A DNA stretch of 63,204 bases, counting the filler, from Reclinomonas americana ATCC 50394 (taxonomy: Eukaryota): assembly GCA_048213135.1 (NCBI GenBank). It is 5 parts of 2 records of this genome, joined end to end, with 100 filler letters (N's around TTAATTAATTAA, not from the genome) between each part and the next. Parts side by side here need not be neighbours in the genome. Positions count along the whole stretch, not along the records: positions 42,630 to 53,839 come from PS015749.1; 4 more parts are not named here. The stretch is one strand, 5' to 3'. Below the pieces are notes generated by a model that was not told where the DNA came from, did not search any database, and was given only the letters and a program-made list of their open reading frames with translations. This document shows, piece after piece, positions 45,443-49,615 of this stretch. A program made the position numbers and the translations under genes. The stretch's first letter is position 1; every line of letters starts with the position of its first letter.

Positions 45443-48400
45443 CGGTCGCCGTCGCCATTTCGAGAAGGCCTGGAAGCTTGGCAAGAGCGGCGACGTGGAC
45501 GCACTTCGCGAGCTCATTTCATTTGCAGGCGTGGACGCCCTCCAATTCGTCGACCGCGACAATGCCTCTGTGTATCACCACGCTGCAGAGTGCGATCATG
45601 TTGAGGTGCTGCAGTGCTTGTGGGACGAGGCGGGTGCGGATGTGTGCGCCAAGCTGGCAAGGATGGTGACGGACGGGAACTATACACCGCTGATGGCGGC
45701 CTCGATGAACGGGCATGAGGAGGTCGTCGAGTGGTTGTTGGCCGATAAGCGCCGCTGTCCGGGCTCAGTGGCTCGCACCGTCACGAATGATGATGCAACG
45801 TATCCGGGGTTGAGTGCAATTGAATGGGCTGCTATGGGTCAGCATGTGAGTGTGGTGCGGCTGCTGGCGGCGGCCTATCCCGACTTGCATGCCCGAGCAG
45901 TGGAGTGGGCGCGGCATAGAAGCAGGCGCGATGCGCTGGCGGTGCTGGAGCGAGCCGGGCCGCCGTCGCCTGTGCTGGTGATTCAACCGTCGCCGCGAAC
46001 CGCAACTCAACCAGCTGCAGGTGAGCGTTGACTGTGCGATTCTCCTTTCACTTGGAGACTGATCGCCTCTCCTTGGTCGATACACAGAGCGACTCGTATC
46101 GCTTAAATCACGACTTGAAACGCTGGGATCGCCTCGGTCGACCCCGCCGGCGCCGGCGTTTGCATCACCGCGTGAGACTCGACTCGAATCACCGCGTGCA
46201 CTACCGCTCGTGTCACCGCGCGTCGCATCGCCTGTGTCACCTTTTGCGCTACCGCTCCCATCGCCACGTTTACATGCAACGACTGTGGATTCACCGCGTC
46301 AGGTGTGACCGAGGTCTCGTTGTATTGCACTGTGCTTTTTTGCTGTGCCCTCACTTTCTGTTCCAGACGAACAAGCTGGGTGGAGCCACTGTTACGGAGG
46401 CCTGGACACCGAGGTTTGTCTCAGTTTATGATGGTCTTTCACTGAGCCAGAGTGTGTGTGTGTGAGAGAGAGAGAGAGAGAGAGAGATGCAGAGCGCAAG
46501 GAGCACAGAAAACGACATGAACTTCTTCAAGCAGAGAAAAGTAGAGGGAGACAGGACCAGAGAAGATGAGGAGAGTTTTGGCTTTCGCAGATACATGCAT
46601 CGACGACCTGCAGGCGTCGGAAGGTCATGGAGTCAGCGCGCCTTTCTCATTGTCTGTTGAAACTTACACGCCTCACTCATTTCACTCCCTCCCTCTCTCT
46701 CTCCCTCTCCTTTCCTCCCGCCATCCACAGTGAAACCCCTCGAACACAAGCTTCTCGACTTGAACGCCGAAAGCAATCGCAAAATTTGCGAGCCTGGCAG
46801 ATGGCTGAAGTCGGCGACCTCCAGGGGCTGCAGGATTTGGTGGCTCGCGAGGGCGCAGGGGCGTTGCTGCTTCGCGTCGAGATGGATGATCTGGGCCGCT
46901 CTTGCTTTGTGTATGCAGCGTCTCGCAGCCACATCGACATTTTGGACTTCTTGTGGGAGAGCGATGTCGGTCAACAACTTGCAGAGCTCGTAGGTGACGA
47001 TGGCTGGACGCCGTTGATGATGGCCGCCTATCACGGCCGACTGCACGCCGTGGAGTGGCTGTTGGCAGACGAAGGCCGATGTCCTCCGCAAGTGATCAGT
47101 GCAGTCGTTCGCCGCACCAAGTGGAATGCTCTGCACCACGCGGCGTGGCCTGGATACGAAGTCATTGTGCAGCAGCTGGCTGCTGCGTGCCCGGATCTCG
47201 TCTCCATGGTGAACAAGGACGGCGACACGCCGGCACAAGTGGCTCGCAAGAATGACAAGCAGCAGGTGGCCGACGTGTTGGATCACCTTGGCGAGCAGCA
47301 GCAGCGGATCGCACGCAGACACGTTGTTCCTCGCCTGCAGCTCGCGGTGGAACCCCGGCCATCGCCATCACCTACAGGTGCGTTGCAATGTTAGTGCATG
47401 TATCTGCGTTTTCGCCCGGATCTCATGACGAGCACACTTCAGCCTTTGTCGAGTCGACGCCGCGCAAGGTGTTGTTGTCTTGATGATTGGCTGTCCTTCC
47501 TGTCGACAGTACGCTGATGCTCGTGTTTGGTGCGTGCAGACTGCCCTGGCCATGGGAGTGCGGAGCCACGAATCGACAACGCCACGCCTGCCGCGTGAGA
47601 CGGAATCTGTAATGGCTCGAGTGCAACGCGAGGTGGAACAAAAACGCTTGCAGGATCGCGAGCGCGAGCAGGAACTTGAGCGCCGAAATCAACAACTCCA
47701 AGAGGAACTCAACGTCGCTCGACTGGAAGTCGAAACCATTCGACGGGAGGCCGACGCCGCCAAACGGGAGGCCAACGCTGCCCGGCTCGAACGCGCGGAG
47801 AAACTTGAAGAAATGCGACGAGTTGCAGCTGCGGAGAAACGCCAGTTGCGGAAGCTCGAGATGTCGGTTGCACAGCTCAAGAAAGCTGTTGCCGACGAGC
47901 GGCGACGATCTAGCGAAGCGGCCGACCGAGCAGTGGCGAAATTGACTCAGCAGCAGCGTGCCACTAGTGAGGCGGCGGCGGAGGTCGAGCGGCTGCAGCA
48001 AGTGATAGCGGAGGAGACGCGCAAGCGGCGCGCAGTGGAGGAGCAGCTCGATGAGAGGCACGGATCGCTAGAGCGATCCAGTTCGGAGCTCGAGGCCATA
48101 GCCGAGATCGAGCGGTTAAAAAGAGCCAAGGCGGAGGAGAAGCGCAAGCGGCTAGCAGCGGAGGCGCAAGTCGACGAGGAGCGACGGCGTGCTCGCGAGG
48201 CAGCGAGCCGAGCGCAGGAGAAATCGACTCATCAGCAGCAGCGTNNNNNNNNNNNNNNNNNNNNGGGAAAACGCATAGAGAGAGGAGGAGAGAGAGAGAG
48301 AGCTGGCGACTTGAAGAAGAGGTGTACAGTTTACTCAGCTCCTAACACACTCTTCGTGATCTCTCACTGTCAGCTCCCGGTCGGCTGCGCGAATACACCT

Positions 48401-49615
48401 GGGACGATGTTGTGCACGCCACCGAGTCTTTCGCCGAGCGTTACAAGGCTGGTGAGGGTGGAGAGGGTGACGTGTTTCTATGCTGGCTTGGCGACGAGGA
48501 TGTGGCAGTCAAACGGATGGACGGCGCCCCGTCGGCCACCGACTCGTACAATGCTGAGGTGATGAGTGTGGTGGCATCCGCGGAGAGAGATCGGCAACCC
48601 ACTTTCTACTTCATGCTTCTGAACAGCTTGATACACTCGGTCAACTGCGACATCGGCGACTGGTTCCGCTTCTTGGCTACGCTGCACGGATCGAGGGCGA
48701 GGAAGTGAAGGAGCGCTGCTTGGTGTACCGGGCCATGCGGTGAGTGCAAGAAGGGGAATGCTGTGCCAGTGAGGGATGGCATGAATGCCTCACCATCTTT
48801 CTGCCGCTCACAGTGGTCAAGATCTGGGGGTGCGGCTATTGCAGCGTGGTGCCGACACGGTCTCGTTGACAGTGGTGCAGCGAGTGCAGATTGGGTTGGG
48901 CATCACCGAGGGAGTGTGCTTTCTTCATCAGGTGAAGAATAGTCGACTCTTATGTAATTGAGTCCTCTGCTCCTCTCTCACACACGTTTCACGTGCAGCA
49001 CAATGTGGTACATCGTGACTTGAAGCCAGGCAACATCCTTCTCGACAAGCGCTGTGAGCCGCGAATCGGCGACTTTGGCATCGCTCGCATCTTCGACGAA
49101 GATGAGGTGAACAGCGGTTTTGTGTCAGCGACAACTCGTGCCGTTTGCTCACTTGAGTGTCTCGCAGACTGATCGGCACACCGATCACCGACCCGGTACG
49201 AAGCATTACATCGATCCACTGTTCCTCCGTTCCTGCAAGATCCGCAAGTCCATGGATATGCACGCCGTGGGACTCATTCTGCTGCAGCTGCTGACTGGAC
49301 GCGATGCATATCTGCTGGTGGAGCAGGCTCCGCGGTGGGAACGCAACCTCGACACGGTGAACGCCGTCACGGAAGCCGATGCACAGGCTGGCAACTGGCC
49401 GGTGGACGTGGCCCGAGGCATGCTGCAGCTCGGTGTTCAGTTGCGTGCCGCATTAGAATGGAAGAGACAACTTGTGGTGGGCGCAGTGTCTTATGCGGTG
49501 ATCTCCGCACAGATGCATGTCGCTGTACGAGGAGGATCGCCCGACGGCCGACGACGCGCGGACAGTGATGCTGCAGTTGCGAGAGAGACTGGGTGGATTC
49601 ACCATCGAGTTGTGA
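45443..49615 (+). CDS. ankyrin-repeat (two modules) + coiled-coil + RLK/Pelle(IRAK)-family protein kinase
   Basis: Ankyrin: [46 protein letters not shown]. Coiled coil at 47600-48244. Spliced kinase: [66 protein letters not shown]|..[41 protein letters not shown]|..[28 protein letters not shown]....EDRPT..*. Start codon (~45222-45240) is uncertain; fusion into one gene is inferred from compatible phases and crosses a 20-N gap. Confidence 0.85.

Follow-up and report, generated by a model that had tools for sequence, protein, structure and literature searches.

A candidate gene with two ankyrin modules, a coiled coil and a kinase

The stretch of DNA analysed here, further referred to as the window, comprises 63,204 nucleotides (nt) of the Reclinomonas americana ATCC 50394 genome (assembly GCA_048213135.1). 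At positions 45222-49615 of its plus strand there are two ankyrin (ANK) modules, a long coiled coil and a protein kinase domain; both these domains and a splice-compatible frame leading through them are directly established. Judging from the sequence, we lean slightly towards reading the whole region as one 13-exon gene, whose product would be a soluble protein of about 1047 residues with an RD-type Ser/Thr kinase at its C-terminus. In the predicted model, 3144 nt (1047 codons) run from ATG 45222 to TGA 49615 with a single, terminal stop; every donor is GT, and each of the 12 acceptors is CAG (Table 1). The order of domains from the N- to the C-terminus would be ankyrin module 1, linkers, ankyrin module 2, a coiled coil of about 210 residues and the kinase, the linkers being rich in Ser/Thr-Pro. 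The parts of this model do not stand equally firm. Module 2, the coiled coil and the kinase are likely to belong to one gene, and the chances that module 1 is also a part of it appear about even. A single transcript is something that we infer.

Pfam was run on 10 exon pieces, of which four gave a family (two Ank_2 and two Pkinase) and the other six none; nine open reading frames located in other frames or antisense had no Pfam family, and an Rfam scan of the window returned no family. The two ankyrin modules are paralogues (36% identity over 152 amino acids, aa; E 4e-24), and no homology was found between the linker after module 1 and the one after module 2 (E 17). The Ser/Pro/Arg-rich linker exon downstream of module 1 has introns of 67 and 64 nt on either side, belongs to repeat family D3 and matches no Pfam family. 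Just 5' of both ankyrin exons there are long CT/CA-rich microsatellite tracts (45240-45440 and 46667-46730), each of them after an in-frame ATG, and this arrangement looks like a duplicated 5' unit. For ATG 45222, an alternative is an in-frame read straight across the CT-rich tract, without a splice. The microexon that would hold module 2 and the coiled coil in frame has competitors, as 12 of 23 AG..GT pairs, itself included, keep the frame; a CAG acceptor is present in only two of these 12, and the other one is 5 nt long. Nine of the 12 introns measure 61-74 nt, namely the five kinase introns and the N-terminal ones of 67, 64, 65 and 71 nt.

The 211 residues counted from 47612 contain no proline and one glycine, and abound in E, R, A, Q, L and K. 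The hydrophobic contrast of their heptad positions a/d corresponds to a z of 4.4, a value reached by 1 of 300 shuffles. This segment stops about 10 residues before the kinase leader motif, a distance that depends on the join across a gap of 20 N in the assembly. The coiled-coil frame is open up to that gap, and the donor GT at 48243-48244 gives phase 1, which is the phase required by the first kinase exon. The latter has no in-frame ATG before its G-loop, and therefore an upstream coding exon is needed.

The kinase domain and its completeness

Six GT-AG exons (K1 to K6, 48374-49615) join into an uninterrupted, gap-free canonical kinase domain, which goes beyond what chance would give. The five introns between them were validated by alignment to relatives; they begin with GT, end with CAG and are 61-74 nt long. 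The G-loop, the VAVK lysine, the alpha-C Glu, HRD, the catalytic Asn and DFG are all present. As all the catalytic residues are intact, the protein is probably active as an RD kinase. The motifs quoted in the first-pass annotation were all found on the plus strand at the expected places, both in the sequence and in the spliced translations. One junction of its manual splicing is corrected here: the end of K5 had been read at 49432 and lies at 49439 (donor GTTGCG). A 98-aa library protein, P0002, which is 76% identical, is contiguous across the inferred K5/K6 junction and ends one residue beyond the stop found here, and thus it supports both the K5/K6 splice and a C-terminus without any further domain. 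A pattern scan of metagenomes with P0002 gave 521 pattern matches, none of which was confirmed.

The protein has no E3 ligase domain. When three U-box and three RING sequences served as tblastn queries, the window gave no match below E 0.13, and none came from the part 3' of the stop, where a 770-N gap (50270-51039) is unreadable. No USP domain was found either, by Pfam in the N-terminal exons or by sequence search of the window (the best match, E 0.5, lies elsewhere in the window). According to Pfam, the N-terminal exons have no death domain and give only Ank families. No Pfam domain corresponding to the accessory parts of Raf/MLK kinases (RBD/C1, SH3, leucine zipper) was found in the exon pieces.

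Table 1. Predicted exons and kinase motifs of the 45222-49615 region, in positions of the window (RLK, receptor-like kinase; RLCK, receptor-like cytoplasmic kinase; GC3, GC content at third codon positions)
Feature	Position	Strand	Evidence or remark
Putative first coding exon, 29 nt, ATG, donor GTGTCC, phase 2	45222..45250	+	Inferred; only in-frame ATG 5' of ankyrin module 1
Exon with ankyrin module 1	45443..46020	+	Pfam Ank_2 E 4e-21 (45444-46019); GC3 0.68
Ser/Pro/Arg-rich linker exon, SPR motifs, four 24-nt (8-codon) tandem units	46088..46302	+	Open frame in phase with flanking exons
Short linker exon, 47 nt	46367..46413	+	Frame/splice model; the 317-nt intron after it is the weakest join
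Exon with ankyrin module 2	46731..47377	+	Pfam Ank_2 E 3.9e-16 (46732-47376)
Microexon, 26 nt, holding module 2 and coiled coil in frame	47443..47468	+	CAG acceptor, GTGTTG donor, introns of 65 and 71 nt
Coiled-coil exon: Thr/Pro linker followed by ~211 aa of helix type with heptad periodicity	47540..48242	+	Heptad contrast; donor GT 48243-48244
Assembly gap, 20 N, in the intron between coiled-coil exon and K1	48245..48264	.	Sequence
Kinase exon K1: pre-kinase leader, G-loop, VAVK lysine, alpha-C Glu	48374..48558	+	Solved-structure matches 13/14 plant RLK/RLCK or IRAK1
Kinase exon K2: contains CLVY, Tyr gatekeeper	48627..48739	+	Solved-structure matches 9/9 BRI1, SOBIR1, ScRIPK
Kinase exon K3: alpha-E region	48814..48931	+	Gap-free alignment to relatives
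Kinase exon K4: HRDLKPGN catalytic loop, DFG	48999..49106	+	Pfam Pkinase E 1.8e-10
Kinase exon K5: activation segment, AGNWP	49168..49439	+	Pfam Pkinase E 1.8e-5; 184 library matches at E<=1e-3
Kinase exon K6: C..DRP, C-terminus, TGA stop	49513..49615	+	P0002 contiguous over K5/K6
Pre-kinase leader, 15 residues	48388-48432	+	Fits [FY][ST]..[ED][LI]..AT..F
G-loop GEGGEG	48451-48468	+	
VAVK lysine	48511-48513	+	
CLVY, Tyr gatekeeper	48717-48728	+	
Motif in K4, 12 residues	49011-49046	+	
DFG	49071-49079	+	
YIDP	49207-49218	+	
Motif in K5, 10 residues	49270-49299	+	
AGNWP	49387-49401	+	

Searches place the kinase close to RLK/Pelle kinases

The first-pass annotation had described the kinase as being of the RLK/Pelle rather than the Raf/MLK type, and as similar to plant U-box kinases of the RLCK-IXb group. 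Both parts of this description agree with what we found. Searches of solved structures were made with single kinase exons. With K1, the plant-type matches were a LysM-RLK, CERK1, a lectin-RLK-like chain, PBL2, BRI1 and BIK1, and IRAK1 was matched at E 0.55; the 14th match was RNase L. The ScRIPK entries, which together with BRI1 and SOBIR1 account for all the K2 matches, we take to be those of a plant RLCK. The top three matches of K5 were RKS1 (E 5.4e-4), a LysM-RLK and SYMRK, followed by lower, non-significant ones (MAPK6, Pto, StkP, RIPK3 at E 0.15, PKC iota and MLK4 at E 0.48). K3 alone had no solved-structure match, and K6 had only two chance ones (nucleoporin, E above 1).

Word-index protein searches with K5 (73 candidates) and K1 (one candidate) gave no match. 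An exhaustive HMMER search with K5 against 1.84 billion representatives produced 184 matches at E<=1e-3; the best 150 of them were re-scored with the full spliced kinase domain, and all 150 were run through Pfam. The highest full-domain scores, 134.7-140.3 bits, belonged to P0077, P0084 and P0113, all of which combine a kinase with a U-box, P0084 having a USP domain in addition. The accessory domains detected in the best 150 of the 184 were U-box (10), PP2 (10), malectin (3), LysM (3) and RING (2), and Pfam found in them no accessory domain of Raf, MLK, IRAK, RIPK, LRRK or LIMK kinases. It may be mentioned that many of the top K5 matches (P0001, P0005, P0014, P0028 and others) are plant proteins bearing three to six tandem kinase domains. 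When compared with group profiles, the window kinase scored 199.9 bits with the U-box group, 181.0 with other plant RLKs and 150.7 with a haptophyte group described below, and the U-box profile was favoured over that of other plant RLKs by only +19 bits.

Signature residues and trees

Signature residues were counted in 18 U-box, 16 haptophyte and 18 other rows of the alignment. The WP of AG.WP occurs in 17/18 U-box and 14/16 haptophyte rows and in none of the 18 others, and K-P in HRDxKPxN in 17/18, 16/16 and 4/18, respectively. A Cys before LVY is found in 8/18 U-box, all 16 haptophyte and 1/18 other rows, and DPL only in haptophyte rows (11/16; 0/18 in both U-box and other rows). The window kinase has all four, and it also has the Tyr gatekeeper, which is widespread (U-box 18/18, haptophyte 9/16, other 17/18). 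The pre-kinase leader of RLK/Pelle kinases is defined as [FY][ST]..[ED][LIV]..AT..F. When the aligned rows were compared with this definition, the window kinase fitted it, and the AT pair of the leader was present in 46 of the 52 other rows.

In a FastTree tree of 101 rows, the window kinase falls into a 26-row clade (support 95) together with all nine U-box rows. In an IQ-TREE tree (LG+C20, 53 rows), a 36-row clade with support 94 consists of the window kinase, 16 haptophyte rows, an 18-row U-box clade and P0070, and it is separate from the FERONIA, PBL/RLCK-VII, LecRK, CRK, SRK and LRR-RLK rows. Within it, the window kinase is sister to the 16 haptophyte rows (support 84); it stays outside the clade that these rows form (support 99), as well as outside the U-box clade (support 99). 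On the question of affinity, the discrete characters speak more clearly than the trees. On the whole, the window kinase appears to be a divergent RLK/Pelle-like kinase with RLCK-IXb-type marks, nested in no single group, and its closest affinity seems to be with the group made of plant PUB-VI/RLCK-IXb kinases and the haptophyte kinase-RING family. A family affinity as such is seen directly in the sequence comparisons.

Comparison with known systems

The PUB-VI/RLCK-IXb proteins (Arabidopsis PUB32-35, PUB50-53 and others) are built of USP, helix, kinase and U-box, and it is to them that the best full-domain similarity (the scores of 134.7-140.3 bits, with up to 36% identity) belongs. They have in common with the window kinase AG.WP, LLQLLTG, C..RP, K-P, YIDP, the Tyr gatekeeper and the pre-kinase leader, and, as predicted for the window gene, a long helix lies directly N-terminal to the kinase. 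Unlike them, the window gene has neither a U-box nor a USP domain, its ankyrin modules occupying the USP position, and its kinase has DPLF where theirs have DPE[YF]. Another difference concerns the host, which has a RasGEF gene, as the first-pass annotation had correctly pointed out for the window; we take such a gene to be untypical of land plants.

The second system is a haptophyte-centred RLK/Pelle-like family (P0124, P0151-P0173, P0177, P0189, P0206) with a C-terminal RING and a varied N-terminus (ANK, ARM/HEAT, PDZ or PUF), which in the IQ-TREE tree branches as the sister group of the plant U-box kinases. The nearest row outside plants, P0124, was obtained from a Chrysochromulina transcriptome; among its relatives are Prymnesium parvum AB1Y20_008333, Emiliania huxleyi EMIHUDRAFT proteins and many ENA proteins. 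Among the 120 listed relatives of P0124, RING is present in 15 and ANK, always N-terminal, in four (P0161, P0173, P0177, P0206), while others carry ARM, PDZ or PUF. This family shares DPL[FY], Cys-LVY, K-P and A.WP with the window kinase, and the four members just named share N-terminal ANK with the window gene; P0124 and P0155 have, in front of the kinase, a short coiled coil akin to the one described here, and P0161 has about 360 helical, E/K/A-rich residues between ANK and kinase. On the other hand, the window gene is devoid of the C-terminal C3HC4 RING, pairwise scores are just 20-100.7 bits, the profile score is the lowest of the three groups, and the window kinase keeps LLQLLTG, the extra residue of AGNWP and C..DRP, which the haptophyte group does not have. 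A haptophyte origin of the window was considered and, given this low similarity, set aside.

A third case is P0087, one of the best 150 K5 matches, which is an ANK+kinase+U-box protein whose kinase belongs to the U-box clade. As in the window gene, ANK is N-terminal to the kinase, but P0087 differs in its U-box, in its single ANK block and in having no clear coiled coil, and the two kinases score 105 bits as a pair. U-box proteins of Chlamydomonas that contain ankyrin, kinase and coiled-coil parts have been listed (PMC4378952).

Other kinases are similar in one respect only. The animal IRAK/Pelle kinases, which are members of the same wider RLK/Pelle family, share the Tyr gatekeeper, and IRAK1 is among the K1 matches; however, the window gene has no death domain, and plant-type chains outscore IRAK1 in the K1, K2 and K5 exon searches. 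RIPK4/ANKK1, TNNI3K, ILK and KEG have ANK and a kinase of the tyrosine kinase-like (TKL) type in one chain, as in our gene model, but they showed no sequence affinity in the same three exon searches, and in RIPK4/ANKK1 the kinase comes first.

ANK is thus found N-terminal to this kind of kinase in five database proteins (P0087, P0161, P0173, P0177 and P0206). The earlier view that the architecture was an unrecognised one thus does not hold, and ankyrin before this kind of kinase is rare but not new. The predicted protein, which has no E3 but two ANK modules and a long coiled coil, is a variant of this design. The label "innate-immunity-type", which had also been given to the kinase, is backed by nothing in the sequence. 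A language-model search provided leads only, which were clusters of haptophyte kinase+RING, rotifer kinase+U-box and chlorophyte ANK+kinase proteins. One cluster of this search holds 92 kinase+U-box proteins, whose known members are mostly from Rotifera, an unexpected host for such a plant-type pairing.

Alternative explanations

It is improbable, though it needs to be considered, that we deal with a fast-evolving generic TKL kinase (Raf/MLK/RIPK-like, as are other ankyrin kinases, among them RIPK4, TNNI3K and ILK), and that its RLCK-IXb-like motifs are convergent or result from long-branch artefacts. Several observations would suit such a kinase or weigh against the affinity proposed above. 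The end branch of the window kinase is the longest one in the IQ-TREE tree (1.87), and approximately unbiased (AU) tests reject neither its grouping with the U-box clade (p 0.411) nor that with the other RLK rows (p 0.355). All rows of our trees are RLK-like, with labelled Raf, MLK, RIPK or IRAK sequences in none of them. Several catalytic-core motifs are generic, the solved-structure matches of K4 are FUS3, NEK2 and ERK2, and RIPK3 and MLK4 appear, if low, in the K5 list. Moreover, the score with the U-box profile is below the median of 220.4 bits that ordinary plant RLKs reach with the same profile, and a language-model search with P0087 brings ANKK1, RIPK4 and TNNI3K clusters, by architecture. 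Yet in three separate exon searches RLK/Pelle chains come out on top, and those with K1 and K2 match no Raf or MLK chain. Accessory domains of Raf, MLK, RIPK and LRRK kinases occur in 0 of the best 150 library matches. At four independent signature positions the window kinase matches the U-box/haptophyte group, and the pre-kinase leader is present.

As far as the gene model is concerned, it is conceivable, if rather unlikely, that the region holds two or three separate genes and that only the manual splicing has created the ankyrin-kinase fusion. One or two small genes with ankyrin repeats alone (45222 to about 46031 or 46465, and/or 46627 to about 47394) would then stand head-to-tail with a coiled-coil-kinase gene starting from ATG 47552 or 47612; in a milder form of this scenario, the only split would be at 46414-46730, and module 2, the coiled coil and the kinase would stay fused. 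Indeed, in-frame ATGs at 46627, 46801, 47552 and 47612 permit such shorter, separate genes, and each ankyrin exon reaches a stop within 4-5 codons when its donor is unused. The 317-nt intron at 46414-46730 is a size outlier with an in-frame ATG and a CT tract of its own, and in this it mirrors the 5' end of module 1. As evidence for a single gene, a compatible frame is weak because 12 of the 23 candidate microexons, as well as 18 direct splices, keep module 2 and the coiled coil in frame, and so an open frame proves little. One may add that the GC3 of the 46088..46302 linker exon is atypical (0.47), that helix and kinase alone suffice in plant relatives, and that the genome may be compact, as the ATG of a divergent WD40 gene lies 175 nt from ATG 45222. 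Nevertheless, tail-to-head spacers in the separate-genes layout would be just about 160 nt (46465 to 46627 and 47394 to 47552), and the two introns between module 2 and the coiled coil, with their lengths of 65 and 71 nt and CAG acceptors, resemble the five homology-validated kinase introns. The two modules are homologous from a point 12 residues upstream of the internal Met 46801, and the five database relatives with ANK N-terminal to a similar kinase provide a precedent for the fusion. Finally, the coiled-coil and kinase exons might come from different loci, brought together by a misjoined scaffold at the 20-N gap, which we regard as very improbable. The window has 16 N runs, this junction is not readable, and the donor of the coiled-coil exon abuts the gap, whose real size can differ. 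Still, the exons on both sides share the strand, the splice phase fits, the codon-position GC pattern is equal on both sides of the gap, and plant relatives (P0086, P0144) as well as P0124 regularly have a helix immediately before the kinase.

Possible mode of action and implications

Should the region be one 13-exon gene, as we prefer to think, a mode of action may be proposed for its product by analogy. According to a preprint on PUB33, the helical domain of that protein self-associates, and its N-terminal part inhibits the kinase (bioRxiv 10.64898/2026.02.10.704836). Because of this analogy we propose that the coiled coil would pair two chains, and that the paired kinase domains would trans-phosphorylate one another in the activation segment, which is rich in Thr. 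The ankyrin modules might recruit an upstream partner or a substrate, and the S/T-P linkers might serve as regulatory phosphosites. The protein would in this way act like a receptor-like cytoplasmic kinase minus the ubiquitin-ligase half. Dimerisation, kinase activity and a biological role of this sort are what we infer rather than observe.

In plants, the RLK/Pelle kinases provide the main signalling kinases, and in animals, as IRAK/Pelle, they do so for innate immunity; to our knowledge, their history outside plants and animals is poorly charted. One tentative and rather doubtful idea is that the gene represents a branch, E3-less and with ankyrin repeats, that survives from an old kinase lineage behind both the plant U-box (RLCK-IXb/PUB-VI) and the haptophyte RING kinases. 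If this is true and the host lies outside the green lineage, the combination of a coiled coil with an RLCK-IXb-type kinase (with or without an E3) would either predate plants or have passed from algae to heterotrophs or the other way, through endosymbiotic or lateral transfer. It would also mean that ankyrin, USP, ARM, PDZ and PUF can replace one another as inputs to a common signalling chassis. The RLCK-IXb signature does occur in kinases beyond land plants, with varied inputs (ankyrin, ARM, PDZ, PUF) and with a varied or absent E3, and the same can be said of the haptophyte family. The value of the gene itself is that of an unusual gene model, predicted from sequence. In the literature that we searched, which was open-access and covered with limited terms, we found no description of non-plant RLCK-IXb-like kinases or of the haptophyte kinase-RING family. 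Two background sources give RLK counts for Archaeplastida only (PMC10868138) and the concept of receptor-kinase groups (PMC3268121).

Neighbouring genes and other features of the window

The divergent WD40 gene mentioned above occupies 43458-45047 on the minus strand (its ATG is read as CAT at 45045-45047) and gives Pfam WD40 and beta-propeller families. Directly 3' of the stop of the kinase gene a unit of about 277 nt is repeated in tandem (49673-50269); at least 2.5 copies are visible, 91-96% alike, and the repeat runs into the 770-N gap. Further away, the window contains the RasGEF gene, with RasGEF_N (9293-11703, minus strand), a ceramidase gene (16477-17523, minus strand) and a gene for an S10 serine carboxypeptidase with at least three exons (55801-58415, plus strand). 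Four blocks of identical appearance, each made of 44 N, 12 bases and 44 N (18628-18727, 36905-37004, 42530-42629 and 53840-53939), form an odd and regular gap pattern. A weak Big_9 match was seen at 21256-21933 on the plus strand.

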